64,000 bases of DNA from assembly GCA_964406185.1 (NCBI GenBank), contig CAYOQS010000003.1, positions 48,249 through 112,248 on the forward strand, given 5' to 3'. Positions 34,911 to 52,157 of the stretch are shown piece after piece (the first letter of the stretch is position 1; the number at the start of each line of letters is the position of its first letter). Position numbers and translations under genes: made by a program. This DNA comes from an uncultured Methanosarcinales archaeon (GTDB taxonomy: Archaea > Nanobdellota > Nanobdellia > Woesearchaeales > UBA11576). The notes under the pieces are model-generated. The model was not told where the DNA came from. It saw nothing but the letters and a program-made list of their open reading frames with translations, and made no database searches.

Positions 34911-35585
34911 ATGAAAACAGCAAAAAATGCATCCATAATAATACCCGCGCACAACGAGCAGATACACATAACTAAAGTCCTGAAAAAGACAAAGAAGTAC
35001 GCAAAAGCCAGCAACATCATAGTCGTCGATGACGGGTCAAAGGACAAGACCTATGATTTCGCGCTCCAGGAAGGCGTGACAGTCTTGAGGCACGTGATAA
35101 ACCTGGGAAAAGGAGCTGCACTGAAGACAGGAAGCGAATACGCGATCAGGCAGGGCGCGAAGATCCTTGTCTTCATGGACTCTGACGGGCAGCACAGGCC
35201 GGAAGACATACCCAAATTCCTCAAGGCACTCCAAGGCGCAAGCATCGTCTTCGGATCGAGAGTGCCCAGCAAAAAGATGCCCGCAATACTCAAGTTCGGA
35301 AACTGGTCCATAAACATGATCAACAGCCTGCTATTCGGGATAAAGTTAAGGGACACACAGTCAGGATACAGGGCGATGACAGCAAAAGCCTACAGGAAGA
35401 TAAGGTGGAAATCCACCAGCTACAGCGTCGAATCAGAGATGGTAGCCCTTGCGGGAAAGAAAAACTTAAAATACAAGGAAATACCGATCAAGACAATATA
35501 CTCAGACAAGTACAAAGGCACCACAGTCATAGACGGCATACGAATCGTGCTCAACATGATATGGTGGAAGCTCACAAGGTGGTAA
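34911..35585 (+). CDS. GT2 glycosyltransferase (dolichyl-phosphate sugar synthase-like)
   Basis: IIIPAHNE...VVDDGSKDKT with DxD-type motifs. Confidence 0.85.
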   Translation: MKTAKNASIIIPAHNEQIHITKVLKKTKKYAKASNIIVVDDGSKDKTYDFALQEGVTVLRHVINLGKGAALKTGSEYAIRQGAKILVFMDSDGQHRPEDIPKFLKALQGASIVFGSRVPSKKMPAILKFGNWSINMINSLLFGIKLRDTQSGYRAMTAKAYRKIRWKSTSYSVESEMVALAGKKNLKYKEIPIKTIYSDKYKGTTVIDGIRIVLNMIWWKLTRW

Positions 35586-35586
35586 G

Positions 35587-35943
35587 ATGATAGTCGGCGT
35601 GCAGATACTCATATTGCTTTTCGGTCTGGTCATGATATACTTCACATTCCTATACTACAAAAGAGCAAACTACGACAAGGTAGGCCTGGTATTCTGGCTG
35701 CTCGTCTGGCTCGGATTCATGTTCCTAGGGGTCTTCCCCCAGACCGTATACGGCATCATGGAAGCACTAGCCATAGAAAGGACAGCAGACTTCTTCTACG
35801 CAGGAGGGATGGTATTTTTCGCTGTGCTCCTGTTCTACATGTACAACATCACAAAGAAGAACCAGAAACAGGTCGAAGTGCTTGTGAGAAAACTCGCGTT
35901 CAAAAACGCCAAAAAAGGCGTAACAGAAAAGAAGAAAAAATGA
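35587..35943 (+). CDS. small 4-TM membrane protein (DUF2304-like GT2 partner)
   Basis: 118 aa immediately after the GT2 gene. Hydrophobic with a Lys-rich C-terminus. Confidence 0.5.
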   Translation: MIVGVQILILLFGLVMIYFTFLYYKRANYDKVGLVFWLLVWLGFMFLGVFPQTVYGIMEALAIERTADFFYAGGMVFFAVLLFYMYNITKKNQKQVEVLVRKLAFKNAKKGVTEKKKK

Positions 35944-36284
35944 AGGAAAAAGCCCTCCAGAGATTCTTCAGCTTCAGAAGGTTCATGATCTACAGCAAGG
36001 TCTGGGCGCAGAGGACCATGTCATGGATATCAGTAGCCAACTCAGGCATGATACTGTTCCTCGTCCTGGCCAGACTCCAGGAGTACGGCATAAACATCTC
36101 TGTCACCCACTGGTTCGTCCCGCTTTTTCTGGTTATGCTGTTAATGCTCATCCTCCTCGGCTACATAGAAGACAAAGCAGGATTCCACAGGGAAGAGCTA
36201 CACGAAGTCGCGAAGAAAAACCCCCTGCTGAACGACATAATCAAGAGACTCGACAGGATAGAGAAAAAGATGGACAGGAAATAG
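35940..36284 (+). CDS. small membrane protein, hypothetical
   Basis: ATGA overlap with the previous gene. Two TM helices. Confidence 0.45.
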   Translation: MKEKALQRFFSFRRFMIYSKVWAQRTMSWISVANSGMILFLVLARLQEYGINISVTHWFVPLFLVMLLMLILLGYIEDKAGFHREELHEVAKKNPLLNDIIKRLDRIEKKMDRK

Positions 36285-36303: not shown

Positions 36304-38172
36304 TTATGATCGCTTTAACAAGAAGAAACCCTTGTTAGAATTTGCGAGATAAAATTCATCCGAGTTTCCTATCTTAAATAAAAATTCATCTGTGGCATTG
36401 ATGCTGTGCTCCTTCAAGCAGTAAGTGTCCAAAGTCAGATATTCATATCCTCTAGACCTCATCCAGCTGCTTATCTCCTGGGGAGACTTCTCGAAAATAT
36501 CCTCCTTAAATTCCATATATGAAGGGTCCCAAGGTTCTGCCAGCTTATCAAAAGCAAGCACCTTGAACTCATCAGAGCAGACAGGAAAAACTTTTGTATT
36601 ATATGGCAAAGAGTCTACATAATCCATATAACCTCTTAATTCATCCATAGAACCCCAATTAACACCCGGAGGCCAAAAAGATGTCTCAACGATGTATTTC
36701 GGATAGCCTGAAGTAGCAAGAATGCCCAATATCATGACAGCATAAACTACAAACCTGTTTACGCGGATCCGTCTGAAAAACGAACCAAGAGCAAAAAAAC
36801 CCTCTACAGATAGAATGCAGACAGGAATCGCGAATATAGCCCACCACCTATGAGGCATCAACATAGGGAAGGGCAATCTGTTGCCGTGTATACCCATGAA
36901 AGCGATTAATAGCCATATAAATGATATGAGTTTCCAATCATCTGAAATCTCCAATATATTCCTGGGCCGCTTTATCCAACCGTAAATGATGATGAGCAAA
37001 GAGAATACCAGGAGGAAAAAAAGGAAAACACCCACACCTATAGGATTATCCATCTTGCTTGTCTTCTTTGCTATAATGAAATCATCCCAGGAGTATACCA
37101 GACCACCTCCTGAAGATTTGGTAGTGATGCTTCCTAAGTCATTAAGGTTTATCGAATTTTTAGAAGCAGTCCCGTCAAGCCCGAATTCGACTACTGCTGG
37201 TATCCAGAACAAGGAAAATGCAAAAATTGCAGCAACAAGGCCTGAAAGAAAAACCTCCCAGATGAACCGCCTTTTTGACAATGATCTGACAATCAGGTAC
37301 GCAACAAGCATAATACCAAAAATGAACGGGTTTGACATCTGCGTCATGATCATGCCCGCCATCACAACCACAGCAGGAACCATCCAGCGCCTGTCCCTTT
37401 GTATCCGCTCTACCGCATAAAGAGAAGGGAAGAAAAGCATAACCGCCAGGGATGAAGCCCATATGAAATGGCTCATGAAACAAGGAATCAGGAGAAGGAA
37501 AAAAGCGGCTGCAACTGCCTTCTTCCTGCTTCCAAGAAAAGTCACTCCAAAAAAATAAAAGAATATCCCTATCAAAGAGAGAATAACCACATTAAAGAAC
37601 TTAAGATTCCAAATGACGTCCTCATTGGTCTGGTGCAATACACCCATCAATATGTCATAACCAGGAGGATAAGGTTCTAAATACCTACCAAAATCTTTTG
37701 AAACTGTATTAACCTCAATAGTCTTCATCTCTTTTATGTACCTGACGCCCTCAGCATGAAGCCAAGGATCATCATCCTCTAGATAAGGATAAACGAAAGC
37801 ACCATGGTGATACACACCGAAGAAGACAGCAGACATCATAAGAACAATAATAAAATAAAGAGAAGATTTTTTCATCTTCATGGAAAACCTGTATTTCGCG
37901 ATCCTTTTTAGCGATTCGGTGAATCTGCCCCTGTAAAGAGCGTATGAAGGGACCAAAACGCTCAATACAACAAAAACAGGCCAATAAATCTGTACGTGCA
38001 GAAGGTTCAGCAAGACCCCAATAACAGGTATCACTCCCAAACCAAAACCTATTATCAAGAAAAACTTCTCATACCACTGAGAGTCCCATCTTATGAAGAA
38101 AGTCACTGAATAGCCAAAACCAAGAGTCAGAACCAAAAAAATGACAATAGTTAAAATCTCCATGCGCAACAC
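36304..38172 (-). CDS. large polytopic membrane protein, probable GT-C-type glycosyltransferase
   Basis: 622 aa with more than 12 TM helices. It directly abuts the upstream GT2 gene (stop at 38173, start at 38172). Confidence 0.55.
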   Translation of the reverse strand: MLRMEILTIVIFLVLTLGFGYSVTFFIRWDSQWYEKFFLIIGFGLGVIPVIGVLLNLLHVQIYWPVFVVLSVLVPSYALYRGRFTESLKRIAKYRFSMKMKKSSLYFIIVLMMSAVFFGVYHHGAFVYPYLEDDDPWLHAEGVRYIKEMKTIEVNTVSKDFGRYLEPYPPGYDILMGVLHQTNEDVIWNLKFFNVVILSLIGIFFYFFGVTFLGSRKKAVAAAFFLLLIPCFMSHFIWASSLAVMLFFPSLYAVERIQRDRRWMVPAVVVMAGMIMTQMSNPFIFGIMLVAYLIVRSLSKRRFIWEVFLSGLVAAIFAFSLFWIPAVVEFGLDGTASKNSINLNDLGSITTKSSGGGLVYSWDDFIIAKKTSKMDNPIGVGVFLFFLLVFSLLIIIYGWIKRPRNILEISDDWKLISFIWLLIAFMGIHGNRLPFPMLMPHRWWAIFAIPVCILSVEGFFALGSFFRRIRVNRFVVYAVMILGILATSGYPKYIVETSFWPPGVNWGSMDELRGYMDYVDSLPYNTKVFPVCSDEFKVLAFDKLAEPWDPSYMEFKEDIFEKSPQEISSWMRSRGYEYLTLDTYCLKEHSINATDEFLFKIGNSDEFYLANSNKGFFLLKRS

Positions 38173-38919: not shown

Positions 38920-39026
38920 CTAAATACCTCTAGAGAGCGTCAACTACGAGAAGCCAGCCATTTAAATAAGTTTCTTCACATTTAAAAACAAAAACTTTTT
39001 AACCCAGCAGATATGGTCTTGAGAAC

Positions 39027-40499
39027 ATGAAAATATGCCTTTTGATACCGCCGGCTCCAGGAGGCTTCAAGGTCCCTGAGAGGATATACGGCTGCAGCTA
39101 CAACATCTACCCGCAGCCAGACCTGCCATTGCTCTACACAGCAGCAGCGCTGGAAGAAAAAGGGCATGAAGTGGTGTACAAGGACTTTGTATCAGAAGAG
39201 AACGAATGGGAAGAGATGGAAGACTTTTTGAAGAAAGAGAAATTCGACGCGTTCGTCTTCCACACAGTGCTACTGTCACAGAAAGTAGACCTGAAGACAG
39301 CGCAGGTGATAAGAGAGAATCACAAGAAATCCCCCATCGTGTTCTTCGGACCGCAGCCGACATACGTGCAGAAGCCATTCATGCTGGACGAAAACACATA
39401 CGTGATAAGAGGGGAAGCGGAAGAGAGCATACAGGACCTGTTCGAAGAAATCCAGCACGAAAAGCCACAGCTGGAGAGGGTTAAGGGCCTCAGCTACAAG
39501 AGAGGCTACAAGACGATAAAGAACGAGAGCTTTGGGATCATAACAGACATCAACAAGATACCATACCCTGCAAGGCACCTCATAGACCACATAAAGCACA
39601 AGTTCTACAACCCAAAACTGGGAAAACGGCCCATGACAGTGATGCTCACGTCACGAGGATGTCCATACCGATGCTATTTCTGCGTCCCAAACTCCCTCAG
39701 CTGGGCAAGGGAGCTGGACTGGAAAGAAGGGCACGACGGAAAAAAACCACCCATAGGCATAAGGAGCGCGGAAAATATCATCGGCGAGTTCAAGCAGATA
39801 AAAGAGCTCGGATACAGGTCCGTGTCCATCATAGATGACATGTTCCTCGTAGGAGGAAAGCAGAGGATACTGGACATATGCAAAGGCATCGAGCCATTAG
39901 GAATAGAGTTCGGCGTGCTCGCTCGTGCTGACCATGCATATGACCTGGAGATGCTCAAGGCGCTGAAGAAAGCAGGATGCCAATACATCGACCTTGGCGT
40001 CGAGTCCTTCAACGAGAAGATACTCAAGTACATACGCAAAGACCTAGACCCGAAGATAATCAAGAAAAGCATAATCAACATAAGAAAAGCAGGCATGGAG
40101 CCCAAGATAAACATAATGTTCGGAACCTGCCCGCTAGACACGAAAGAAGAGATAAAGAAGACGATAAAGAAAGCATGCGAACTGCCGGTAGACTACTGCA
40201 TGTTCTCCATAACGACACCATTCCCAGGCACAGAATTCGAGAAAGTGGCGCTGGAGAAAGGATGGGTGCTCAAAGACAAGTACAGAAGGATGTTGCGGGA
40301 ACTCGACCCGTCAAAGAGCGCTTTGATCTCCTATCCCCATCTCACGAACAAGGACCTTGAAAGGCTCACAAAGATGGCAAACAGAAGATTCTACCTCAGA
40401 CCGAAAAGGGTTCTGAAGCAGCTCAAACGAATAAAATCCTTCAAAGACCTCCTCGACACCATAAAAGGAGGATACCAGCTCGTCAAAGGAAAGAACTGA
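39027..40499 (+). CDS. B12-binding-domain radical SAM protein
   Basis: N-terminal Rossmann-like B12-binding region. TSRGCPYRCYFC is the CxxxCxxC motif. 490 aa. Confidence 0.85.
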   Translation: MKICLLIPPAPGGFKVPERIYGCSYNIYPQPDLPLLYTAAALEEKGHEVVYKDFVSEENEWEEMEDFLKKEKFDAFVFHTVLLSQKVDLKTAQVIRENHKKSPIVFFGPQPTYVQKPFMLDENTYVIRGEAEESIQDLFEEIQHEKPQLERVKGLSYKRGYKTIKNESFGIITDINKIPYPARHLIDHIKHKFYNPKLGKRPMTVMLTSRGCPYRCYFCVPNSLSWARELDWKEGHDGKKPPIGIRSAENIIGEFKQIKELGYRSVSIIDDMFLVGGKQRILDICKGIEPLGIEFGVLARADHAYDLEMLKALKKAGCQYIDLGVESFNEKILKYIRKDLDPKIIKKSIINIRKAGMEPKINIMFGTCPLDTKEEIKKTIKKACELPVDYCMFSITTPFPGTEFEKVALEKGWVLKDKYRRMLRELDPSKSALISYPHLTNKDLERLTKMANRRFYLRPKRVLKQLKRIKSFKDLLDTIKGGYQLVKGKN

Positions 40500-40512
40500 T
40501 TTTCACAGGAAA

Positions 40513-41535
40513 ATGATCAGCGTCGTAATAGCGGCATACAACGCCGCAGAATATATCGAAGAAGTGCTGGATTCAGTGCTCAACCAGACACTGCTGCCGG
40601 ACGAGATAATAATAGTGGACGACGGAAGCAAAGACAAGACGCTTACCGTGATCAAGGAGTATCCAAAGAAGCTCAAGCCAGGCCTGAAGAAGAGATTCAA
40701 GAAAGTCAAGAGATACAAGATACTCAGCCAGAAGAACAAAGGTCCTGCAGGCGCGTCCAACACAGCGATAAAGGCTGCTCGGGGGGATGTGATATTATCT
40801 GTCGATTCCGACGCAGTGCTGGACAGGAAATTCATACGATCAGCAGTCAAAGAGCTCAAGAAAGACAAGAAACTCGGAGTGGTCGGAGGGTACATAAGGA
40901 CAGCAAACCCGGACAAGTTCTGGGCGCGCATGATGGGATACGACCTCGAGTACAGGTATGACCATATAGGATGGGTAGATGCTGACAGGGCCTATGTAGA
41001 GCACGTGAGCCCGAACAACACAGCATACAAATCAGAAGTGTTCAGGAAAGCAGGATACTTCGACCCAAAATACCACTACTGCCAGGACGTCGACCACAGC
41101 TACCGGGTCGTCGATGCGGGGTACAGGATAATGCTGCTGAAGAAAGTGGGCAGCAGGCATTACTGGAGAGAGACATTCCCCGGGTACACAAAGCAGCAGT
41201 TCAACGTATCATACTGGCGCATGAAACTTGTCCACAAGAAGCCAGGCAAGATAAGGGGAGACAAAGTGGCTGGGGCCCGTATGTTCATGCAGGTTCCTCT
41301 TACAGGCATCATAGGCCTGCTTTACATCACGACCATATTTCATACACCTATCTGGTGGGTGCCGACCATACTGCTCGGCCTGCTCCTGATCGAGAGATAT
41401 GAAGAGGCGTTGTATATCATGTGGAAGAAAAAGAGCGTGAGTGCATTGCTGATGCCGTTCGTGCACATATGGCGAAACATCGTGTGGGGCATAGCAGGCG
41501 TAAGCTACCTCGTAGGGAAGGCATTCGGAAGATGA
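40513..41535 (+). CDS. GT2 glycosyltransferase with C-terminal TM helices
   Basis: VVIAAYNAAEYIEEVLDSVLNQT...IIIVDDGSKDKT. Hydrophobic C-terminus. Confidence 0.85.
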   Translation: MISVVIAAYNAAEYIEEVLDSVLNQTLLPDEIIIVDDGSKDKTLTVIKEYPKKLKPGLKKRFKKVKRYKILSQKNKGPAGASNTAIKAARGDVILSVDSDAVLDRKFIRSAVKELKKDKKLGVVGGYIRTANPDKFWARMMGYDLEYRYDHIGWVDADRAYVEHVSPNNTAYKSEVFRKAGYFDPKYHYCQDVDHSYRVVDAGYRIMLLKKVGSRHYWRETFPGYTKQQFNVSYWRMKLVHKKPGKIRGDKVAGARMFMQVPLTGIIGLLYITTIFHTPIWWVPTILLGLLLIERYEEALYIMWKKKSVSALLMPFVHIWRNIVWGIAGVSYLVGKAFGR

Positions 41536-42551
41536 GCTACACAACAACAGGACTGGAAAAAAGAAAAAAGCAGAACATCGTACTGGAATTCCTGGGGAGG
41601 GTGTTCTTCATAGTGCCACGCATGCCGAAGTTCGCCCAGATAGAGATAACCAACTCCTGCAACCTCAACTGCAAGATGTGCCCGCGCGCCTTCCTGAAAG
41701 TGCCTTACAAGCACATGGACATGAAAGTATACAAGAAAGTGGTGGACAAGCTCGAAGGCATAAACACATTGACACTGACAGGATGGGGAGAGCCATTCTA
41801 CTACGAAAAGATATTCGACTGCATCAGGTACGCGAAGAAGAAAGGCATCAAGGTAAAGCTGACCACCAACGGCGTGCTGCTTAACGATGAGAAGATAAAG
41901 AAGATATTCTCATCAGGACTCGATGAGATAACATTCTCGCTGGACAACGTGAAAGGGGATCCTGACTTCGGGCATCCGAACAAAGCCGCTTTGAGAAACA
42001 TACAGAAGATAATCGAGATACGGGACGGGCAAGACCTTGAAAGGCCAAAAGTCGTGCTGCAATGCACGATGCACGCCCGGAAAGCGAAGAACGTGTTCGA
42101 CGTGATAAAATGGGGCGCTGACGTGGGCGCGGACAGGGTGAACATCGCCCGCCTGGACCTGCGGTTCGACCCCAACCTCAAAAGGGCGTCAGAGAAAGAA
42201 GAACAGAAGATATACAAGAAAGCAGACAGGCTCAGCAAAGAGAAAGGGATAAGAGTCGACATGGTGCAGTACGCCGTCTTCGACGGGTTCGCAAGATCCA
42301 TGTACAAGCTCCTGAGGAAGGTGCTCCACAGGTTCGACAAGAAATGCTCAAAAGGATACAACTACGTGTATGTGAATGTCGACGGGTTCGTCACACCATG
42401 CTGCTTCTACCCCCTCATGAAGATGGGAGACCTCAAGAAGCAAAGCCTGCGAAAGATATGGAAAGGCCCGCGGTACACAAAGTTCCGGCAGTTCAAGGTC
42501 AAAGGATGCATCAAATGCGATGTGATGAGGGTGAGGTATATAGGGAAATGA
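41532..42551 (+). CDS. radical SAM protein with SPASM-like C-terminal Cys cluster
   Basis: TNSCNLNCKMCPR is the CxxxCxxC motif. C-terminal CCFYP...GCIKCD. ATGA overlap at both ends. Confidence 0.8.
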   Translation: MSYTTTGLEKRKKQNIVLEFLGRVFFIVPRMPKFAQIEITNSCNLNCKMCPRAFLKVPYKHMDMKVYKKVVDKLEGINTLTLTGWGEPFYYEKIFDCIRYAKKKGIKVKLTTNGVLLNDEKIKKIFSSGLDEITFSLDNVKGDPDFGHPNKAALRNIQKIIEIRDGQDLERPKVVLQCTMHARKAKNVFDVIKWGADVGADRVNIARLDLRFDPNLKRASEKEEQKIYKKADRLSKEKGIRVDMVQYAVFDGFARSMYKLLRKVLHRFDKKCSKGYNYVYVNVDGFVTPCCFYPLMKMGDLKKQSLRKIWKGPRYTKFRQFKVKGCIKCDVMRVRYIGK

Positions 42552-43819
42552 AAAATAAAAAGAAAAACCTCATAATCCTGGGAGGTGGCCTTTCAGGCCT
42601 GGCCGCCGCAGACATTCTCTCAAATCACTTCAATGTCAATTTGATCGAAAAGCAAGACCATCTAGGCGGACTTGCTTCCAGTTTTGAACAGGACGGCGAG
42701 ATGATACCAAAATACTACCACCACGTCATACGACACAACAGCACCACACAGAAATACCTCCGCAGATTTGGCCTTATGGAAGGCAGCAGATGGAAAAAGA
42801 TAAACGTCGCTATCGGGGTGAAAGGCAAGCTCACAGACATAACAAAACCCCTGCAACTAATCCGTTTCGGATATCTTAGCCTGTGGGGAAGATTACGTTT
42901 CGGCATTTTCGGCCTGCACACCATATTTTTCATGAATCCTGAAAAAATACGGGAGGATGCCGACGCGCAGACCTGGCTCGAAAAAAAAGCAGGGAAAGAA
43001 GTTACAAAAAAAATATTCTACAACCTTTACGGAAGGAACAAGTTCAACATAAGCCTCGAGAGAATCTCGGCGAAACAGTTCGCATACCGGCTTAAAGAAA
43101 GGGAAGTCTATGATAAGTTCACATATCCGCCTGCAGGCCTCCATAAGCTCATAGACGGACTTGAAAAAAGCATAAAAAAGAAAAGAGGAAATATCATCAA
43201 ATCAGCAAAACTTGAAAAAGTAGATCTGAAAAAGAAAAAAGTATATGTAGACGGCAAAGTTCTCGATGCTGATGTAATCATAAGTTCAATACCTATACCA
43301 ACATTCCTGAAGATAAGTGAAGGCGTCCCTAAAAAATACAGAAAAAAACTGGCTAACATAAAATGGTGCCCCTGTGTAAATGTCACGTTCGGAACCGAAA
43401 CATTTCTGGACAAGAGGTATTACTGGACAAACCTTTTTGAGGAAAGGGCGCACGTCCTGATGCAGCATTCCATACTCGTAGACAAATACAGCTCAAAAAT
43501 AAACTGGATATTAAGATACGGCGGATCCGAGCAAGACATCGGACTTGATGACAAAAAGATCGCAGAAGAATACCTCAGAGTAGTTTCAAGATATTTCCCA
43601 AATATCAAAGTAAAGTGGGCCAAAGTCTTCAAAGAACGATATGCTGAGCCAGTATATGATAAAGACTACTCAAAGCACAAACCAGACTACACAACACCCA
43701 TAGATGGCTTATACATGACGGGCATCCAAGTCACCCATCCCAAGATAAGGAACATGAACACTGCGCTGGAAGCCGGAAGAAAAGTCGCGAAAATCATCTT
43801 AAAAAGGGATGCTGAATAG
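42548..43819 (+). CDS. FAD/NAD(P)-binding Rossmann oxidoreductase (amine-oxidase / UDP-galactopyranose-mutase-like)
   Basis: NLIILGGGLSGLAAADIL...IEKQDHLGGLASSF dinucleotide-binding motif. Confidence 0.7.
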   Translation: MKNKKKNLIILGGGLSGLAAADILSNHFNVNLIEKQDHLGGLASSFEQDGEMIPKYYHHVIRHNSTTQKYLRRFGLMEGSRWKKINVAIGVKGKLTDITKPLQLIRFGYLSLWGRLRFGIFGLHTIFFMNPEKIREDADAQTWLEKKAGKEVTKKIFYNLYGRNKFNISLERISAKQFAYRLKEREVYDKFTYPPAGLHKLIDGLEKSIKKKRGNIIKSAKLEKVDLKKKKVYVDGKVLDADVIISSIPIPTFLKISEGVPKKYRKKLANIKWCPCVNVTFGTETFLDKRYYWTNLFEERAHVLMQHSILVDKYSSKINWILRYGGSEQDIGLDDKKIAEEYLRVVSRYFPNIKVKWAKVFKERYAEPVYDKDYSKHKPDYTTPIDGLYMTGIQVTHPKIRNMNTALEAGRKVAKIILKRDAE

Positions 43820-43873
43820 TGGCAGCATAAGCTAAAACAATATAAATGACTCCTGTACCCTAAACTGCACAAA

Positions 43874-44944
43874 ATGACAAAACCAAAAATAGCTGTACTA
43901 AAGACGACACCCGACACAGTAGTGCCTGACTATTCAAAGCTTATGCACCTTGCTGAGTACGAGAAAGAGATAAAGAAAAGCCATGAGACTCTCCTGAAGA
44001 TAAACCTCTCATGGTCGATGTATTATCCTGCATGCTCTACAGAACCCTGGCAGCTTGAAGGTGTGCTAAGGACCCTGATAGAGGACGGCCACAAAAAAAT
44101 ACATCCTGTAGAGAACAAGACTGTGGTCACAGATCCCTGGAAAGGGGCAAAAGGAAACAAGTGGCTCCCAGTCCTAAAGAAGTATGGTCAGACCTATAAA
44201 CCCCTAACAGAAGTGAAATGGGTCAAATACCGGCCAAAACATGAGCTTATCGCTCTTGACAGCATATTCCCAAAAGGCCATAAGATACCAAAGATGTTCT
44301 ACGGGAAGAACGTTATACACCTACCTACAATAAAAACCCACGGACACACAGTCATGACGGGAACCATGAAAAATGCATTCGGCGGCCTGATTACCGAAAG
44401 AAGACATCACTGCCACAAGAAAATACACGAAGTGCTTGTAGACCTATTGACGATACAAAAAGAAATCCATCCCGGTATTTTCGCGGTCATGGACGGCACT
44501 GTCTGCGGAGATGGTGCGGGTCCCAGGACCATGTTCCCAAAAGTAAAAGACTATATCCTTGCAGGAGCTGACCAGGTCGCTATCGATGCGATAAGCGCGA
44601 AGATGATGGGCTATGACCCTATGAAAATCAAGTTCATCAAGCTTGCGCATGACAAAGGTCTGGGATGCGGAGATCCTGACCAGATAGATATCATCGGGGA
44701 AGACATTTCACGTGTCAATTTCAGGTTTCGGACAGCCAAATCACCGGTAATATTCTGGGACCAGATGTTCAGGAAAGGAGCATTGAGCTTTGTCGAACCT
44801 CTCCTGTTCCACACAGGTCTTTTCAATATGTGCATATTCGCGTCAGCATTCTACCACGACTACCTATGGTACAATACGGTCGGCAAGAGAAGGATCAACA
44901 GGTTCAACAGGACCAAGTGGGGAAAGCTCTTCAAGAACTACTAA
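43874..44944 (+). CDS. DUF362-family protein
   Basis: LPTIKTHGHTVMTGTMKNAFGG and MDGTVCGDGAGP...ADQVAIDAISAKMMGYDP resemble the conserved DUF362 core. Family recalled from memory. Confidence 0.55.
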   Translation: MTKPKIAVLKTTPDTVVPDYSKLMHLAEYEKEIKKSHETLLKINLSWSMYYPACSTEPWQLEGVLRTLIEDGHKKIHPVENKTVVTDPWKGAKGNKWLPVLKKYGQTYKPLTEVKWVKYRPKHELIALDSIFPKGHKIPKMFYGKNVIHLPTIKTHGHTVMTGTMKNAFGGLITERRHHCHKKIHEVLVDLLTIQKEIHPGIFAVMDGTVCGDGAGPRTMFPKVKDYILAGADQVAIDAISAKMMGYDPMKIKFIKLAHDKGLGCGDPDQIDIIGEDISRVNFRFRTAKSPVIFWDQMFRKGALSFVEPLLFHTGLFNMCIFASAFYHDYLWYNTVGKRRINRFNRTKWGKLFKNY

Positions 44945-44993
44945 ACATATGATACGTCATCATAACTGACAGGCATACATCTAAGGTGCGCAC

Positions 44994-45635
44994 ATGAAAA
45001 TAGACCTTCACGTACACACAAACTTATCCCGCTGCGGAACCACATCAATCGGCAGACTGAAGTCCGAATGCGACAAGAGAGGGATAATACCTGCCATAAC
45101 TGACCATAACACAATAAAAGGTGCCCTTGAGTACAGGAAAGAATGTGGAAAATGCATCATCGGCGAAGAGATACTCACGCGCGAAGGTGAGATAATAGGG
45201 CTATTTCTAAAGAAGGAGATACCCGCCAAGCTCAGCCTCGACAAGACAATAAGTCTCATAAGAAAACAGGGAGGACTGGTAATGCTCCCACATCCTTTCG
45301 ACAGAATGAGAACGTCAAGGCTTGACGATGAGAGCATCGAAAGAGTCAAGGACATGATAGATATCGTAGAAGTGTACAACTCAAGGACAATATTCCCTTC
45401 TGATAACAAGAAAGCGCAAAGATTCGCCAGAAAGAACGGAAAAGCCGCCTCCGCAGGAAGCGACAGCCATTTCTGGTTCACACCCGGAAAGAGCCATGTC
45501 GAAATTAAGCCGTTCACGAAGAATACATTCCTGAAAGAACTCGAAAAAGGCAGTCTGGTAATGAGAAGAAGCCCTCTGCTCGTTCACGCAATATCTAAAA
45601 TTTTAAAAACATACCGGAATTACGTGAAGAGATGA
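44994..45635 (+). CDS. PHP-domain metal-dependent phosphoesterase
   Basis: MKIDLHVHT...AITDHN His motifs typical of the PHP family. Confidence 0.8.
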   Translation: MKIDLHVHTNLSRCGTTSIGRLKSECDKRGIIPAITDHNTIKGALEYRKECGKCIIGEEILTREGEIIGLFLKKEIPAKLSLDKTISLIRKQGGLVMLPHPFDRMRTSRLDDESIERVKDMIDIVEVYNSRTIFPSDNKKAQRFARKNGKAASAGSDSHFWFTPGKSHVEIKPFTKNTFLKELEKGSLVMRRSPLLVHAISKILKTYRNYVKR

Positions 45636-46501
45636 ACATGATAAAAAAGATAATAGAAATCATCAGACTCATCAGGCCAGTACAATGGTACAAGAACCTT
45701 CTAATATTCTTACCCATATTCTTCATGGAACAGATACTCAGTCCAGAAAGCCTGCTGGTCACATTTTTAGGTTTCGCAGCATTATGCCTGATATCATCAG
45801 CGAACTACATCATAAATGATATCGTCGACCACAAGAAAGACCGGCTGCATCCCGAAAAGAAAGGGCGGCCAATCGCTTCAGGAAAGATCAAACCATATGA
45901 AGGAGCTATACTTACGGCATCGCTGATAGCAGCATCGGTGGCCATATCCTTGACATTGAACGCGCAGTTCCTCCTGATAGTCGCAACATTGTTCGTACTC
46001 ACACAGGCATACTCATTCTTCCTGAAGAAGATAGTCATAGCAGACATAATGATGATAAGCCTGAACTTCGTGATAAGAGCCGTCGCAGGCACAGTCATAC
46101 TGCAGGTAGAGACCACGCCCTGGCTCCTGATATGTCCTTTCTTCTTCGCAATGTTCCTAGCAACAGGAAAAAGGTACAGCGACCTGATACTATTAGGCAA
46201 GAAAGCCAAACGACACCGCAAAGCACTCGCACATTATTCTCCGGCAATTCTCCAGATGCTGATAATATCAAACACGACGCTCCTCCTGATATCATACGCA
46301 TTATTCTCATTCCAGAGGGAGCGGCAATCGCTCGTCCTCACACTTCCTTTTGTCATATACGCAACATATGAGTATGCCCGGCTCATATACTCCGGCTCGG
46401 ATATATCCCGTCAGCCGCACAAAGCTATCAAGAGCAGACGCCTGGTCATCACGGCTGCCGCCTGGCTGATAGTGACAACATCGCTAATCTACCTTACCTG
46501 A
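45632..46501 (+). CDS. UbiA-family prenyl-phosphate transferase, decaprenyl-phosphate phosphoribosyltransferase (DPPR synthase)-like
   Basis: NYIINDIVDHKKDRLHPEKKGRPIASG is an NDxxDxxxD motif close to the Rv3806c-type consensus. 8-9 TM helices. ATGA overlap with the PHP gene. Confidence 0.75.
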   Translation: MNMIKKIIEIIRLIRPVQWYKNLLIFLPIFFMEQILSPESLLVTFLGFAALCLISSANYIINDIVDHKKDRLHPEKKGRPIASGKIKPYEGAILTASLIAASVAISLTLNAQFLLIVATLFVLTQAYSFFLKKIVIADIMMISLNFVIRAVAGTVILQVETTPWLLICPFFFAMFLATGKRYSDLILLGKKAKRHRKALAHYSPAILQMLIISNTTLLLISYALFSFQRERQSLVLTLPFVIYATYEYARLIYSGSDISRQPHKAIKSRRLVITAAAWLIVTTSLIYLT

Positions 46502-46506
46502 AAAAA

Positions 46507-47157
46507 ATGGCATCAAAAAACGTCAAGAAGCATTATGAGAACATCTCTGACGACTACTATTCAAAAAGTAACAAGTACTGCGAAAGGAGATACGAAGAGA
46601 TAGTTAGGAAAGCCTCAAAAGGCAAGAAGGCTGTACTCGAGATAGGATGTGGAAACGCCGCCATGGCAGCACAGATGAAAGCACGCTACGTAGGTGTCGA
46701 CCTTTCTGAGGGGATGCTAAAGAACAACAAAAACCTCAAGAAAGGGGATCAGCTACTCTGTGCAGACGCTTCAGACCTCCCGTTCGAAGAAGGCATGTTC
46801 GACCTCATATACTCGATCAACCTGCTTGAACACGTAAAAAAACCAGACAAAGTGATAAAAGAAGCCACCAGAGTACTCAAACCAAACGGAACACTACTAA
46901 TGATAACACCGAACGGAAATCTGGGCTGGATACTCGAGATTGCAGAGATACTCAAGCTTAAACTCCCGGAAGGACCGCACAGGTTCCTGAAACGGGACGA
47001 GCTCAAGAGAACAATAAGGAAAAACGGTCTCAAGATAAAGAAATTCAAGGAATTCGTAACATTACCATTCGGACCTTACAGAATCGCGAAGAAACTCGAG
47101 TTCATGAGCTCATTCAATTTAGGGCTTTTTCATCTAGTGATAGCTAAAAAAAAATAA
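46507..47157 (+). CDS. class I SAM-dependent methyltransferase (type 11)
   Basis: VLEIGCGNAAMAAQ motif I. DLPFEEGMFDLIYS post-I/II. Confidence 0.85.
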   Translation: MASKNVKKHYENISDDYYSKSNKYCERRYEEIVRKASKGKKAVLEIGCGNAAMAAQMKARYVGVDLSEGMLKNNKNLKKGDQLLCADASDLPFEEGMFDLIYSINLLEHVKKPDKVIKEATRVLKPNGTLLMITPNGNLGWILEIAEILKLKLPEGPHRFLKRDELKRTIRKNGLKIKKFKEFVTLPFGPYRIAKKLEFMSSFNLGLFHLVIAKKK

Positions 47158-47188
47158 ACAAACCATCCCTAACCAAAATATTTATAAT

Positions 47189-48391
47189 ATGGATAAAATA
47201 TGTTCTGATGCTATGAAACATATAATCTCAAAAATAAAAAAAAGCCTCAAGAAAGCTTCTAAAGACGAATTATTAACTCCGCGCAATCTAATAATACTTC
47301 TATTGATAACGCTGCTCAATTCTTTTATGATACATCTTTATCTCAATCCTCTTTTTGTCATATTATTCCTGTTTGGAATTGTTTTTCTTACAGGATTGTA
47401 TTTATTCATCAAAATACCTGATAAGCATAAGAAAACCATATTTATCTCTTTGACAATCTCATTTTTAGCATATTATCTCATCATCATGACAGTATTCGCT
47501 CCTGCATTCACAGAACGCATGGATAGGGATGAACTGCTAACAGCCACTTCAACCATGATTCTTTCTGGAAAGTCACCATATGAAGCTCGCTGGGTTGTTG
47601 GCGAATATGTTGCGATAAACCGCGTCAATGTCCTTCCTTTCTCATTGATTTATTCCATACCATTCTATCTTTTTGGAAATGTCGCTTTTCAGGATTTAAT
47701 AGCCTATCTATTTATTGTGTATATCATATACATCAGATATACAGGGAAAACAATTTTTAGGAATAGCTTTTCGTTATACCTTCTCGTACTTTTTTCAGTC
47801 TCCCCCATTACCTGCTTTGAATTCATGGGACTCAGCGATCTCCTTACAGGTATCGCCTTATTCCTTGGGGCAGTACATTTTGCGACAAAAAAGAAGATAA
47901 TCCCTAGCACCATCTTTCTTTCATTATCTATGCTCACAAGATTGGTTCTATGGCCCCCTGCAGGACTGTTAGCGGGTTACTATTACAGAAGAGTAAGGAC
48001 AAAAAAATTTTTGACGATAGGCATTACAATTACAATAATAATAACTGCATTTATGATACCATTCTACTTATGGGATGGTGAAGGCTTCCTAAACAACACC
48101 CTAGGATCCAACCAAGGCAAATTAAACATAGAAGGTTCACAACTATTCAGATTAATACCTATAAAAGATATAAGCTTAATTTTTCCAGGAATATTGCTTC
48201 TTTATTCAATTATTGCGGGTTATTTTTCAAGGAACTTTCATGATCTCTCTCTTCATTTCGGAATTTTGATGATAATCTTATTTTCAACAATGCTGATGAT
48301 TGCGTTAGATTATTCACATCTCACATGGATGGCAGTACCTCTTTATTTTTCATTCAAAAGCAGAAAAATAAAAAATAATAAAATAAAATGA
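47189..48391 (+). CDS. polytopic membrane protein (Wzy-like polymerase / GT-C candidate), low-GC gene
   Basis: 400 aa, 10 or more TM helices, markedly AT-rich relative to its neighbours. Confidence 0.55.
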   Translation: MDKICSDAMKHIISKIKKSLKKASKDELLTPRNLIILLLITLLNSFMIHLYLNPLFVILFLFGIVFLTGLYLFIKIPDKHKKTIFISLTISFLAYYLIIMTVFAPAFTERMDRDELLTATSTMILSGKSPYEARWVVGEYVAINRVNVLPFSLIYSIPFYLFGNVAFQDLIAYLFIVYIIYIRYTGKTIFRNSFSLYLLVLFSVSPITCFEFMGLSDLLTGIALFLGAVHFATKKKIIPSTIFLSLSMLTRLVLWPPAGLLAGYYYRRVRTKKFLTIGITITIIITAFMIPFYLWDGEGFLNNTLGSNQGKLNIEGSQLFRLIPIKDISLIFPGILLLYSIIAGYFSRNFHDLSLHFGILMIILFSTMLMIALDYSHLTWMAVPLYFSFKSRKIKNNKIK

Positions 48392-49530
48392 AAAAAATAA
48401 ATATATTCAGAACCATAGAATCTTTCTACCCGTACATGAGCGGGCCGGCGAACCAGGCATTCAGGATAAGCAAAGAGCTGGAGAAGAGAGGGATAAGATC
48501 GCCCATATTCACTTCTGATTACAAGGCTGGCGGAAGGCCCAAGCATGAGAAGATGAAAGGGGTCGAGGTGTTCAGGTTCCCGATCAGATGCAATTTCATG
48601 AAGTATTTCTACACGCCAAGCATGAAGGAGAAGTTGAAGGGGTTTGATGTTTATGCTTCTCACAGTTACAGAAGCTACCAGACAGAACTCGCGTACAAGA
48701 TAGCCAGGAAGAAAGGCAAGCCTTTTGTCCTGCACAACCATGGCTCACTGATAGGATACAAGTCATTCGTCAAAGGATGGAAAAGGATTCCCTATATGGT
48801 GTATGACCTGTTCCACAAGGACGTGGCGCTGAAAGCGGACGCAGTCATAGTCAACACAAAACAAGAATACGGCGAGGTCGTCAGATTCGGCGTGGACAGG
48901 AAAAAGATACACATAATACCCTTCGGCATCGATGTTGAAAAGTACAAACCGCTGAAAAAAGAGAAAGAGGTGCTGAACCTGCTGTGGGTAGGGAGAGTCA
49001 CAAAGGACAGAAACATAGAGGTAATACTCAAAGCGGTGAAGCTGCTATCTGACAAGAAGGTCAAGCTCAGGATAGTCGGAAACGAGTACAAGAGAACATC
49101 AGGCGACAAGGAATCAGAACTGAAAAGGCTCAAAGTAATAGCAAGGAAACTGGGAATTGCGGACAAGGTTGATTTCATCCCCTGGACAGAAAAGAGAGCG
49201 AACAAGGAATTCCGCAAAGCAGACATATTCATCTACACATCACTATGGGAGAACCTCGGGCAGACAATACTCGAAGCAGCGGCTGCAGGGCTGCCGTTGA
49301 TATGTACAAGGGTCGGTGTAGCTCTTGACCTTGTCGAGAAGGAAAAGACCGGCGCGATTGTAGGCTTCAACAACCCATCAGGAATCGCTAACGCGGTCAG
49401 GCAGTTCTCCAGCGGCAAAAAGAGAAAAAAGGCTGCTGGGCTGTTGAGAAACAAAGTCATGAAAGAATACAGCTGGAAAGAAATTATTGAAAAGCATATA
49501 AGACTATGCAAGTCATTATCAAATATTTGA
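48388..49530 (+). CDS. GT4 (group 1) glycosyltransferase
   Basis: EAAAAGLPLICTRVGVALDLVEKEKTGAIV is an EX7E-type motif. GT-B architecture. Confidence 0.85.
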   Translation: MKKINIFRTIESFYPYMSGPANQAFRISKELEKRGIRSPIFTSDYKAGGRPKHEKMKGVEVFRFPIRCNFMKYFYTPSMKEKLKGFDVYASHSYRSYQTELAYKIARKKGKPFVLHNHGSLIGYKSFVKGWKRIPYMVYDLFHKDVALKADAVIVNTKQEYGEVVRFGVDRKKIHIIPFGIDVEKYKPLKKEKEVLNLLWVGRVTKDRNIEVILKAVKLLSDKKVKLRIVGNEYKRTSGDKESELKRLKVIARKLGIADKVDFIPWTEKRANKEFRKADIFIYTSLWENLGQTILEAAAAGLPLICTRVGVALDLVEKEKTGAIVGFNNPSGIANAVRQFSSGKKRKKAAGLLRNKVMKEYSWKEIIEKHIRLCKSLSNI

Positions 49531-49636: not shown

Positions 49637-51526
49637 TCACTTCGCAACATTCTTGATAAGATTATCCAAGACATTTAAATCAACACCAGAATAATACTTT
49701 TTATGATACTTCTTGCCAAGAGATTGCTTTGAGGCCTTCGACCCCTTATCTGCCAGCAGTCTATGTATCAACTTCTTATCAAACGCATCATAAGAATCCA
49801 GCCGCACAAAAAGGTCCATCTTCTCATCAAAAGGTATCTTACAGACGGAGTCCTCATTCAGCCTGTCAGGAGGATCCCATATTATGAGAGGGACACCGAA
49901 TATTATAGAATCAAGAGCTGTCCTGCAGGTGCTGTGGGATATCACAAGATCCGCCGCGCGCAGAAGCTTATAGAAAGGTATATCCCTTATAAAAATGATG
50001 CTCTTAGAAGAGAACCTTGACCGGAGATTATCCAGGCTGATGCTAACATCAGAAGGGTGGAGCTTTATTATGACCGTTATATCCTTCTCTTCCCTAAAAA
50101 GCTCATCAAGCCGGTTTATCTTAGGAAAATCCTTCTCGACAGGCACCTTGCAAGGGAACAGCACAATTCTCTTCTTCGAGGAGATTCCCAGCGATCTCAA
50201 AACATCTTCCCTCTTTATGCTGCCGAATCTTGAGAGTAGCCTGTTATAGGAGTCTGTCCCGAATATCTTTAACTTTTCAGGTCTGACACCAGAATCTATC
50301 TTCCTCTGCCTCTCAAGCTCACTGTAGACGAGCATGTAATCTGAATTTATCTGCGATGCTCCATAAATATCCGCAAGAGGACCATGTGCAAGCGTTATCG
50401 AGAGTATTCCCTTTTTCTTAAGGGCGTAAGCAGCAGTGAAGCCCCAAAATATCATATCATTCGTCATCAGCCCTGCTGAAGGCTTTAGCACACTGACCAG
50501 CCGTTCCATCGCGAACACAAGTCTTAAGTCGGTATAGAGCTCCTTGATGAACGCCATCTCCAGAGCAGGCAATATTGTATCCAGAAGATCATATCCTCTG
50601 AACATAAACTTATTATTGCAACTTTTGTTGAAAAGAGTATTCCATCTCTTCCTATATACCTGAGCAAGCCTGTTCGCATCAGAAGATATCTTACGGGTGA
50701 GGAAATTTTCTGAATATGCATATTCCATACCTTCTTTCGACACGTGCTCAAGCACTTTGTTCCTGCGGGGCCCATCACCGCATATATAGATTGGATGGTA
50801 TCCTTCCTCCTTCATCGACATGAAAGGCTTATCTGAAACCGCCATGTTCGAAACACCATAAGTGAAGAAAAGAATATTTTTTCTGTCTTGGTTCTCCACA
50901 CCATAATCAGATTCCTTGTCGAAATCTGAGAAGCGCCTCCTCTGCTCCTGACGGAAAATAGTGACCCAATAGATCATCCAAAGCAGGAAATTCTGAACAG
51001 ACTTCCTGATAACACCGGAAACACCTCTCTTGACTGTAAGCCGGATATTCCTCTTTCTACATATCTCCTCTAGAAGACCTGTAGAGAAATCAATGTCCTT
51101 CTCTACATAATACATATCCGCCGGATCGTAGAAGAAAACCTCATCAGGATTCTCCTCAGCAAGAATCTCATCGAATATTATAAGCTGCTTGACCACCTTG
51201 ATTAGCATTATGTACAATTTGAATCTGTTCGCTTCCCAAAAAGGAAATCCTTTGATTGTAAAATGCTCACTAACAGATCTTCCTTTAACCTTCTGGCAGC
51301 CCCAGGAATCAATCAGCTCCCAAGCATACTTACGGACAAGGCTAATGTCTATTCCATCGTAGTCCTCGATACGCCTGAAAGATATGCCTTTCGACTCAAG
51401 CATAGAATCAATAGCTGCTGAAAGCGATACATATATGCACTCGCCAGCCCTTTCTGTATCTATATCCAACTGCCTGTCCAGCTTCTCCTTAGATGACAAA
51501 AAGAACAGCGTCTTCATCATGACCAC
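49637..51526 (-). CDS. TagF/KpsC-like GT-B polyol-phosphate/Kdo transferase-like protein, hypothetical
   Basis: C-terminal KLHP...LLRAADLVISHSTCRTALDSIIFGVPLII parallels the CDP-glycerol glycerophosphotransferase KMHP...ITDYSS block. Own TATA (atttaaat 51553-51560) ~30 nt upstream. Confidence 0.5.
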   Translation of the reverse strand: MVMMKTLFFLSSKEKLDRQLDIDTERAGECIYVSLSAAIDSMLESKGISFRRIEDYDGIDISLVRKYAWELIDSWGCQKVKGRSVSEHFTIKGFPFWEANRFKLYIMLIKVVKQLIIFDEILAEENPDEVFFYDPADMYYVEKDIDFSTGLLEEICRKRNIRLTVKRGVSGVIRKSVQNFLLWMIYWVTIFRQEQRRRFSDFDKESDYGVENQDRKNILFFTYGVSNMAVSDKPFMSMKEEGYHPIYICGDGPRRNKVLEHVSKEGMEYAYSENFLTRKISSDANRLAQVYRKRWNTLFNKSCNNKFMFRGYDLLDTILPALEMAFIKELYTDLRLVFAMERLVSVLKPSAGLMTNDMIFWGFTAAYALKKKGILSITLAHGPLADIYGASQINSDYMLVYSELERQRKIDSGVRPEKLKIFGTDSYNRLLSRFGSIKREDVLRSLGISSKKRIVLFPCKVPVEKDFPKINRLDELFREEKDITVIIKLHPSDVSISLDNLRSRFSSKSIIFIRDIPFYKLLRAADLVISHSTCRTALDSIIFGVPLIIWDPPDRLNEDSVCKIPFDEKMDLFVRLDSYDAFDKKLIHRLLADKGSKASKQSLGKKYHKKYYSGVDLNVLDNLIKNVAK

Positions 51527-52129: not shown

Positions 52130-52157
52130 CTCATACCTCAAATACCTGTCAAGATAA

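Follow-up and report, generated by a model that had tools for sequence, protein, structure and literature searches.

A putative archaeal operon for PRPP-dependent lipid-linked pentofuranose donors in a glycosylation island of a Woesearchaeales genome

In mycobacteria, the decaprenylphosphoryl arabinose (DPA) pathway consists of Rv3806c, a decaprenyl-phosphate 5-phosphoribosyltransferase (DPPRS), the PAP2 phosphatase Rv3807c, the DprE1/DprE2 epimerase, and the GT-C arabinosyltransferases of the Emb/Aft type. Donors of this kind, i.e., lipid-linked pentofuranoses derived from 5-phosphoribosyl-1-pyrophosphate (PRPP), were held to be mycobacterial until 2024, when a wide distribution among Gram-negative bacteria was demonstrated (Kelly et al. 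2024, PMC11127046). The systems of the latter bacteria, known as three-component pentofuranosylation systems, have been established experimentally and feature a HAD phosphatase fused to the polyprenyl-phosphate phosphoribosyltransferase (PPPRS), with epimerases being optional (PMC11127046). The Citrobacter youngae O1/O2 system, for example, comprises ORF15 (PPPRS-PRP), ORF14 (MATE flippase), ORF12 (a GT-C enzyme of family GT136), and ORF13 (an epimerase of the short-chain dehydrogenase/reductase (SDR) type), the last not being needed for the ribofuranose side chains of C. youngae O1 (PMC11127046). In the literature searched, no lipid-linked pentofuranose donor system was described for archaea. 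In this study, an operon of ten genes (g1 to g10; Table 1) was analyzed, which is located within a stretch of 64,000 bp (referred to as the window) of the genome of an uncultured archaeon affiliated with the Woesearchaeales (assembly GCA_964406185.1, contig CAYOQS010000003.1). Judging from its sequence and gene neighborhood, the operon (positions 39027 to 49530) probably encodes an archaeal PRPP-dependent pathway for a lipid-linked pentofuranose donor serving surface glycans.

The locus shares several traits with the mycobacterial DPA pathway. Its gene g7 encodes a homologous, predicted UbiA-fold phosphoribosyltransferase sharing the Mg/PRPP-binding residues of Rv3806c, a phosphoesterase gene (g6) lies beside it, GT-C transferases occur in the locus, a flavoprotein gene (g4) is linked, and UbiA-PAP2 gene pairs of the Rv3806c-Rv3807c type were found in some DPANN relatives. 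Differences concern the archaeal host, the phosphatase, which is a soluble PHP protein instead of PAP2, and the flavoprotein, since g4 is predicted to adopt the amine-oxidase/phytoene-desaturase fold, unlike DprE1 with its fold of the vanillyl-alcohol oxidase type. Furthermore, a DUF362 protein with a LarA-like fold (g5) appears as a core member, and a DprE2-like SDR is missing from the window. As proposed here, the pathway follows the logic of the three-component systems, in which polyprenyl-phosphate-linked ribofuranose is formed from PRPP, dephosphorylated in the cytoplasm, optionally epimerized, flipped, and transferred by a GT-C enzyme onto the finished glycan (PMC11127046). In contrast to those systems, g7 carries no fused HAD domain, and the separate overlapping PHP gene g6 would take its place as an analogous, not homologous, component. 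Flippase candidates belong to the MOP family here and to EamA pairs or LPG_synthase_TM proteins in related loci, as opposed to the MATE flippase of the bacterial prototype. The FAD, DUF362, and radical S-adenosylmethionine (SAM) auxiliary enzymes have no counterpart in the bacterial three-component systems.

The UbiA protein g7 matched the Pfam model PF01040 with 98 bits (cut-off 34.2 bits) and features at least seven hydrophobic segments, fitting the polytopic membrane fold of the UbiA superfamily. NCBIfam models for DPPRS yielded 216.7, 174.6, and 143.5 bits, and all other UbiA subfamilies scored 48.6 bits or less. A model for HAD-UbiA fusion proteins (NF006088) reached 182.9 bits, covering the UbiA half only. 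The top PDB match was Rv3806c itself (8j8j, E-value 1.8e-32), the next UbiA enzyme following at 2.5e-7. The signature NDxxDxxxD...RPIASG, noticed in the initial annotation of the locus, was found in g7 as N62-D63-x-x-D66-x-x-x-D70 followed by G-R79-P-I-A-S-G. The cryo-EM study of Rv3806c lists the residues contacting Mg as well as the ribose, 5'-phosphate, and pyrophosphate of PRPP and states that the phosphoribose contacts are absent from ordinary UbiA enzymes (PMC10994848). These contacts were carried over to g7 through the printed pairwise alignment, according to which R15, K21, Y59, N62, D66, K76, R79, Y127, K132, and K197 of g7 correspond to R22, K28, Y70, N73, D77, K87, R90, Y138, K143, and K208 of Rv3806c, respectively. 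Substitutions at contact positions were Y157 to F146, a variant also occurring in mycobacteria, and Q135 to T124. Overall, 11 of the 12 PRPP/Mg contact residues were counted as conserved. Most of the mapped PRPP/Mg contact positions were invariant among 28 archaeal homologs of g7, all 28 of which scored best with the DPPRS models. Apart from the same strain, the nearest public homolog is 52% identical, and the named homologs originate mostly from DPANN archaea; an exact look-up of g7 retrieved no entry, since public copies start two residues later (P0001) or correspond to a 289-aa version at NCBI.

The profile hidden Markov model (HMM) scores, the PDB match, and the PRPP contacts agreed in placing the UbiA protein in the DPPR-synthase branch, as previously suggested, and argue strongly for g7 being a member of the PRPP-dependent PPPRS/DPPRS branch. 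A grouping with the quinone/haem prenyltransferases, which would have spoken against this assignment, was not observed in the HMM comparison. An alternative in which the UbiA protein prenylates quinones or other aromatic compounds, together with a UbiE/UbiG-like methyltransferase, the flavoprotein, and the radical SAM enzymes, is extremely improbable. The weak UbiG and UbiE matches of g8 and the automatic annotation of UbiA homologs as 4-hydroxybenzoate polyprenyltransferase by the Joint Genome Institute (JGI) would fit this alternative, but the quinone/haem models remained at or below 48.6 bits versus 217 bits for DPPRS, the contacts to the PRPP 5'-phosphate are kept, and the neighboring genes relate to glycosylation and not to quinones. 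The quinone-prenyltransferase assignment was therefore rejected based on the DPPRS scores, the PRPP contacts, and the behavior of all 28 homologs.

To place the module in a wider context, 84 UbiA-centered loci were compiled, of which 80 were obtained by an alignment-based scan with one genome per species and four by exact look-ups. The alignment-based scan was required, as a single-protein scan of genome contigs gave no relatives. Counts refer to tblastn searches with the window proteins and to the clustering of all open reading frames (ORFs), the loci being viewed within 10 kb on either side. Across these loci, the UbiA gene is accompanied by GT-C proteins and by EamA-pair flippases or LPG_synthase_TM flippase-like proteins. 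Three layouts recurred. In DPANN type A, two GT-C genes, a family 2 glycosyltransferase (GT2), a thioredoxin-like protein, PMT, UbiA, and PAP2 follow each other, and such UbiA-PAP2 clusters also hold DUF6541/PMT_2 proteins. DPANN type B consists of a GT-C-like protein of approximately 600 aa, the FAD enzyme, an SDR, sometimes DUF362, UbiA, and two small EamA proteins similar to flippases of the ArnE/F type. The Asgard type (Thor- and Hermodarchaeota) combines a calcineurin-like metallophosphatase, DUF362, UbiA, PHP, and an LPG_synthase_TM flippase-like protein; it forms a fixed block of five genes with two phosphoesterases per module in loci L043, L045, L047, L051, L052, L058, L064, and L074. 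In the metagenome locus L121 (3474 to 7068), inspection of the translations by eye revealed PRPP-synthetase-like and type I phosphoribosyltransferase-like ORFs, the neighbors of which are a UbiA of 338 aa with a divergent sequence, DUF362, and a WecA/AglH-like phosphotransferase; the presence of these ORFs beside UbiA and DUF362 is consistent with PRPP as the donor. Locus L168 (12242 to 17287; Woesearchaeota GCA_018221105.1) contains, directly after DUF362-UbiA, GT9 heptosyltransferase-like genes, SIS (GmhA-like), an SDR, and PfkB plus cytidylyltransferase (HldE-like), which together make up a pathway of the ADP-heptose type in this DPANN archaeon.

The small protein g6 exceeded the Pfam cut-offs for PHP (27.3 bits, cut-off 26.4) and PHP_C (35.2 bits, cut-off 21.3) and showed no predicted transmembrane segment. 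Its metal-binding set H6, H8, H38, E59, H100, D157, and H159 is intact and was kept in 14 UbiA-linked homologs. The NCBIfam search returned only models for CehA/McbA, RNase RNM, and nucleoside-bisphosphate phosphatases, all below their cut-offs, and no histidinol-phosphatase (HisJ/HisK) model. This missing signal and the UbiA/DUF362 context, with 15 of the 84 loci having a PHP homolog in the vicinity of UbiA, speak against a housekeeping enzyme of the histidinol-phosphatase type. PAP2 occurred near the UbiA gene in about six loci, and no locus contained both PHP and PAP2, which fits two unrelated enzymes performing the same job. Based on its gene neighborhood, g6 is thus a good candidate for the 5'-phosphatase of the lipid-linked phosphoribose.

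According to the proposed pathway, g7 would act at the cytoplasmic membrane face and transfer 5-phosphoribose from PRPP to a polyprenyl phosphate, probably dolichyl phosphate. The soluble g6 would then remove the 5-phosphate, the role of Rv3807c (PAP2) in mycobacteria and of the HAD domain in Gram-negative bacteria. Less certain is the following step, in which g4 and g5 may remodel the ribosyl group before export. Most likely, C2 or C3 would be oxidized and then reduced again, leading to an epimer such as arabino- or xylofuranose or to a keto-sugar. Finally, the donor would be flipped and used extracellularly by the GT-C-type proteins g9, DUF6541, and PMT for the decoration of N-glycans or other surface glycans, whereas g1, g2, g8, and g10 presumably represent lineage-specific genes for tailoring and glycosyl transfer within this glycan island. 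The core of this pathway, a PRPP-dependent donor route feeding GT-C enzymes, appears well supported by sequence and gene neighborhood, and sugar remodeling by the FAD enzyme and DUF362 is plausible but less certain. The initial annotation had suggested an archaeal analogue of the pathway for decaprenylphosphoryl ribose (DPR) and DPA; the ribose part of this suggestion remains the best reading, whereas arabinose as the product is unproven, because no DprE1, DprE2, or SDR homolog was found in the window. The finding represents a new version, in archaea, of a pathway known from bacteria, with the DUF362 link being its most interesting and most testable part. Including this locus and about 160 related ones, the predicted core enzyme is common to DPANN, Asgard, and other archaea, the helper enzymes of which differ: PHP or PAP2 phosphatases, a flavoprotein of the phytoene-desaturase fold with an SDR, and DUF362. 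The pathway predicts pentofuranose-decorated surface glycans in lineages with uncharacterized glycobiology, provides DUF362 with a concrete testable substrate, and may offer enzymes for glycoengineering.

The presence of DUF362 in the operon had been recorded before, but its status as the main partner of UbiA had been passed over. DUF362 was found in 26 of the 84 UbiA-centered loci, and in a reciprocal, DUF362-centered scan of metagenome contigs, in which 35 loci with at least 1.5 kb on either side were counted, a UbiA gene lay within 1.5 kb in 20 loci, PHP in 10, and either of them in 25. The protein g5 is 70 to 82% identical to its DPANN homologs, compared to only about 50% for the adjacent UbiA, which indicates that it is under unusually strong constraint. 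Among the partners of the UbiA gene, DUF362 shows the tightest linkage and the strongest conservation. The AlphaFold2 model of g5 (mean predicted local distance difference test (pLDDT) value 84) was compared with the PDB using Foldseek, and all six matches with E-values of 0.001 or below were LarA-like (9q3j, 9q3k, 4nar; E-values 4e-5 to 5e-4, probability 1.00, template modeling (TM) scores 0.39 to 0.44). DUF362 and the N-terminal domain of LarA (DUF2088) share the Pfam clan CL0471 (PMC11770544), and LarA enzymes, which use a nickel-pincer nucleotide, epimerize secondary alcohols through transient hydride transfer, the kind of reaction that an epimerase of sugars would require.

Residues invariant across four DUF362 subgroups include H156, T162, K166, G170, R177, H181, and D207. 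The spacing of H156, K166, and H181 (10 and 15 residues) resembles that of H174, K184, and H200 in LarA (10 and 16 residues), as compared by eye; the LarA numbering was confirmed on the 5HUQ sequence. In LarA, H174 (H174/H108 in LarA1) is catalytic, K184 tethers the cofactor, and H200 is a nickel ligand; the correspondence of the three g5 residues, based on their spacing by eye, is an unverified lead. No Fe-S cysteine motif was found in g5, and conserved aromatic/hydrophobic C-terminal helices beyond the Pfam domain could form a membrane-interface element. g5 may act as a redox epimerase or isomerase on the ribosyl group. The more specific proposal, in which DUF362 represents a cofactor-dependent, LarA-like hydride-transfer epimerase/isomerase for lipid-linked (phospho)ribose and one protein replaces DprE1/DprE2, is put forward only tentatively. 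If true, it would be the first assigned activity for the large DUF362 family and would carry chemistry of the LarA type beyond 2-hydroxy acids to sugars bound to the membrane, within a pathway common to DPANN and Asgard archaea. A divergent DUF362 paralog of approximately 346 aa, 28% identical to g5, was observed in loci L010, L016, L024, L098, L104, and L168 (e.g., L024, 5982 to 7022). It keeps the K-T-H...K-N...H pattern but not the His cluster. Translational coupling joins its gene to the FAD gene on the upstream side of the latter, the place taken by the SDR in other loci.

The FAD enzyme g4 had been described as similar to UDP-galactopyranose mutase (UGM) and amine oxidases. Pfam confirmed the Amino_oxidase part, whereas membership in the UGM family was rejected, as the UGM model covers the N-terminal Rossmann part only; the fold match to UGM stays good. 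The uncharacterized NCBIfam model NF005560 matched above its cut-off, and HpnE and phytoene desaturase models matched weakly over the full length. The AlphaFold2 model of g4 (pLDDT 95) resembled plant phytoene desaturase (TM score 0.80) and eukaryotic UGM (0.79), further matches being protoporphyrinogen oxidase (PPOX), coproporphyrinogen oxidase, and amine oxidases. The FAD enzyme was found near the UbiA gene in 12 of the 84 loci, mostly coupled to an SDR or the DUF362 paralog. More telling than the fold are the neighbors of the FAD gene. Among its 22 occurrences, direct contact or overlap with a gene of the extended-SDR epimerase type was seen in eight cases, with the divergent DUF362 paralog and the UbiA gene in six cases each, and with a gene for a GT-C-like protein of approximately 600 aa in four. 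One of the latter four proteins (L169) showed a weak AftA_N match, the only signal of the Aft type; no homolog of this family was detected in the window by tblastn. A flavoprotein oxidase with a coupled reductase recalls the logic of DprE1/DprE2, the folds being unrelated. In the window, g4 instead lies between g3, which overlaps its start, and the main-type DUF362 gene g5; tblastn of the 64-kb window detected neither an SDR nor the DUF362 paralog.

Several observations weigh against the pathway as proposed. The scores of g7 stayed below the equivalog cut-offs of all three DPPRS models (234, 207, and 474 bits, respectively), and since the top score lies just below the curated value of 234, g7 is regarded as a divergent archaeal relative and not as an equivalog. 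No nearby UbiA gene was present in 10 of the 35 DUF362-centered loci. Despite the similar predicted fold, sequence similarity between DUF362 and LarA was not detected by any method: phmmer and two profile searches with DUF362 against the PDB sequences retrieved no LarA, hhalign was negative for LarA alone and gave a probability of 0.2% with an alignment of three LarA sequences, the Smith-Waterman pairwise score lay below the shuffle mean, and Pfam matched g5 with PF04015 (DUF362) only, leaving DUF2088/LarA_N unmatched; the locus also has no 2-hydroxy-acid context. Four accessory genes (g1, g2, g3, and g9) showed no conserved link to the module in the 84 loci. Furthermore, no homolog of SDR, DprE1, DprE2, PAP2, EamA, or LPG_synthase_TM was found in the window, and Pfam and NCBIfam detected no FAD_binding_4 or adh_short/Epimerase domain in the ten operon proteins; the epimerase pair and the flippase were thus not identified by homology. 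Finally, g4 could modify the lipid carrier and not the sugar, because its best structural matches use polyisoprenoid or tetrapyrrole substrates; the predicted fold alone does not tell sugar from lipid as its target.

This last point leads to an alternative that we consider rather unlikely, in which the product of g7 and g6 is used as it is, i.e., as a ribofuranose donor, while the FAD enzyme and its SDR- or DUF362-type partners tailor the lipid carrier by isoprene (de)saturation, e.g., to obtain a dedicated dolichol-type carrier, and DUF362 is unrelated to sugar epimerization. The fold similarity of g4 to phytoene desaturase and PPOX, the weak HpnE and phytoene desaturase matches, the missing recognizable epimerase partner in the window, and the formation of the C. 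youngae O1 ribofuranose side chains with no epimerase are in line with this alternative. However, translational coupling of the FAD gene in related loci involves genes of the extended-SDR epimerase type as well as the PPPRS gene itself, as would be expected of sugar remodeling (cf. DprE1/E2 or ORF13), eukaryotic UGM is nearly as good a fold match for g4 as phytoene desaturase, and a separate geranylgeranyl-reductase-like gene is already present beside AglB. The latter gene (30551 to 31651, + strand), located directly upstream of AglB, encodes an FAD protein with FAD_binding_3, Lycopene_cycl, and GGR_cat matches, a potential polyprenol/dolichol reductase acting on the carrier lipid of the glycans.

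As to the organization of the operon, the ten genes are co-directional, and the gene after g10 lies on the opposite strand. All eight domain assignments previously made for positions 39027 to 47157 were reproduced by Pfam, but the operon does not end there, as g9 and g10 extend it to 49530. ATGA start/stop overlaps previously noted at 41532, 42548, and 45632 are present in the sequence, and a fourth was found at 48388; the remaining intergenic gaps measure 5 to 54 bp. The g3-g4 and g9-g10 pairs are translationally coupled through such overlaps. For g3 and g4, the mechanical ORF list contained longer alternative starts (GTG at 41421 and ATG at 42344, respectively); the ATGA start of g3 matches the gene call in a sister contig (339 aa), and that of g4 matches an identical public protein (P0242, 423 aa). 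Upstream of g1, the candidate promoter contains the boxes tttaaata (38961 to 38968) and tttaaaaa (38981 to 38988). A search of the window against Rfam yielded no RNA families. Prokaryotic operons commonly show ATGA overlaps, which prove nothing alone; the evidence beyond chance is the conserved gene neighborhood.

Table 1. Features of the operon and of the surrounding glycosylation island (positions refer to the window).
Feature	Position	Strand	Basis
Candidate promoter upstream of g1	38960-39026	+	Two A/T-rich TATA-like boxes read from sequence
g1, B12-binding radical SAM enzyme at the operon start	39027-40499	+	Pfam B12-binding and Radical_SAM
g2, GT2 glycosyltransferase with C-terminal hydrophobic region	40513-41535	+	Pfam Glycos_transf_2, 116 bits
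g3, radical SAM enzyme with SPASM domain	41532-42551	+	Pfam Radical_SAM and SPASM
g4, FAD oxidoreductase	42548-43819	+	Pfam Amino_oxidase/NAD_binding_8; NCBIfam NF005560
g5, DUF362 protein	43874-44944	+	Pfam DUF362 (PF04015)
g6, small soluble PHP-family metal phosphoesterase	44994-45635	+	Pfam PHP and PHP_C
g7, UbiA-superfamily PPPRS/DPPRS-like protein	45632-46501	+	Pfam UbiA, 98 bits
g8, class I SAM methyltransferase	46507-47157	+	Pfam Methyltransf_11, 91 bits
g9, polytopic membrane protein, 400 aa	47189-48391	+	About 9 hydrophobic segments; no Pfam match
g10, GT4 glycosyltransferase at the operon end	48388-49530	+	Pfam Glycos_transf_1 and Glyco_transf_4
AglB/STT3 oligosaccharyltransferase, 1078 aa	31670-34906	+	Pfam STT3, STT3-PglB_core
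GT-C-like membrane protein (DUF6541)	36304-38172	-	Pfam DUF6541, 32 bits; 11 hydrophobic segments
MOP-superfamily flippase (Polysacc_synt; MatE and MurJ matches)	56661-58181	+	Pfam
PMT/PMT_2-type GT-C glycosyltransferase	58437-60305	-	Pfam PMT, PMT_2; 11 hydrophobic segments

The accessory genes were less widely distributed. The best NCBIfam model for g1 was HpnJ (174 bits, E-value 5e-51, cut-off 578 bits), and B12-binding radical SAM relatives of low similarity were found in 9 of the 84 loci. For g3, which carries a CxxxCxxC motif at residues 43 to 50, neither an NCBIfam model above cut-off nor a homolog at 1e-8 in the 84 loci was obtained. The earlier suggestion that both radical SAM enzymes epimerize or methylate the product was thus not borne out by the related loci; g1 is more probably a tailoring accessory and g3 an accessory restricted to this lineage. 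In g2, two hydrophobic segments lie at 258 to 293; the related loci contain only generic GT2 relatives and no counterparts of g2 or g9. Only low-similarity homologs of g8 and g10 were observed, methyltransferases similar to g8, which showed weak UbiG and UbiE model matches, being scattered across the loci. The g9 family is rare (77 matches in 1.8 billion representatives), and its distant relatives weakly match ALG3, GT87, PMT_2, DUF2142, and EpsG. With its conserved loop motif D104...G119-x-x-P122-Y123, g9 is a plausible but unproven candidate for a GT-C-type glycosyltransferase using the lipid-linked sugar.

This distribution bears on two further alternatives. The operon may be a composite, in which g4 to g7 constitute a transplanted PPPRS module and the other six genes perform unrelated steps of glycan assembly under a shared promoter. 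Such a composition would account for g2, g3, and g9 having no homologs and g1, g8, and g10 only low-similarity homologs in the 84 loci, and it would suit a region that represents a mixed island (AglB, several GT2s, an ulosonic-acid set, and a flippase); nevertheless, it appears improbable considering the tight packing with four ATGA overlaps and short gaps and the coupling of g3 to g4 and of g9 to g10. It agrees with the donor pathway on g4 to g7 and differs over the accessory genes only. Far less probable still is a modified lipid head group, where g1, g2, and g4 (HpnJ-, HpnI-, and HpnE-like) would build a cyclitol-type or rearranged sugar head group and UbiA would ribosylate a membrane-lipid phosphate, e.g., an archaeol precursor, and not a glycan carrier. 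HpnJ as the best model for g1, the weak HpnE match of g4, and the position of the GT2 gene g2 immediately after g1 would agree with it, but the Hpn matches are far below the cut-offs (174 versus 578 and 73 versus 283 bits), the UbiA module shows no conserved association with g1 and g2, and UbiA is accompanied by GT-C proteins and flippases, not by lipid-synthesis genes, in the 84 loci. A hopanoid-like HpnI/J/E assignment was accordingly rejected, the three matches being far below cut-off and the genes not conserved with the module.

Beyond the operon, the AglB/STT3 oligosaccharyltransferase marks the region as an N-glycosylation island, according to its Pfam matches. The earlier statement that GT-C enzymes occur in the same locus was confirmed by the DUF6541 and PMT proteins, to which the candidate g9 may be added. 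The DUF6541 protein is a possible user of lipid-linked sugars, and a homolog with 31% identity was found approximately 6 kb downstream of the PPPRS gene in locus L025. The MOP-family protein, located 7 kb off the operon, represents a candidate exporter of the lipid-linked sugar or glycan, and members of the same family adjoin FAD-SDR-UbiA clusters in related loci. Overall, the glycosylation genes of the window are most similar to DPANN homologs, with the nearest ones originating from DPANN (Woesearchaeota) and being 52 to 82% identical.

Directly after AglB (34911 to 36284, + strand), a short GT2 (224 aa), a DUF2304 protein (118 aa), and a two-transmembrane-segment protein (114 aa) are encoded, which give the impression of a distinct lipid-phosphate-hexose synthase accompanied by small membrane proteins; the order AglB-GT2-DUF2304-GT4 is repeated in the DPANN loci L005, L008, L011, L013, L034, and L168. 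A set of five genes for an ulosonic/nonulosonic acid, similar to 3-deoxy-D-manno-octulosonic acid (KDO) or sialic acid, is located on the minus strand (51608 to 55295) and comprises DUF386/YhcH, a HAD phosphatase, DAHP_synth_1 (KdsA-like), a DHDPS/NanA-like protein, and a CTP_transf_3 cytidylyltransferase. Beside it, a soluble protein of 629 aa with no Pfam match is encoded (49637 to 51526, - strand). A second radical SAM protein (63161 to 63979, - strand), cut at the window end and sharing 27% identity with the C-terminal portion of g1 in tblastn, adjoins another GT2 (62199 to 63149). Upstream of the island (16774 to 28146, - strand), surface or secreted proteins were found, namely a subtilase of 1346 aa with an I9 propeptide, an Ig-like protein of 471 aa, and a protein of 1474 aa with PKD, He_PIG, and Big_9 repeats, all being possible glycoprotein substrates. 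At the beginning of the window (1 to 9068), an ABC transporter of the branched-chain amino-acid type (two ATPases, two permeases, and two binding proteins) and a PLD-like protein are encoded, suggesting that this genome is less reduced than is typical for DPANN archaea.

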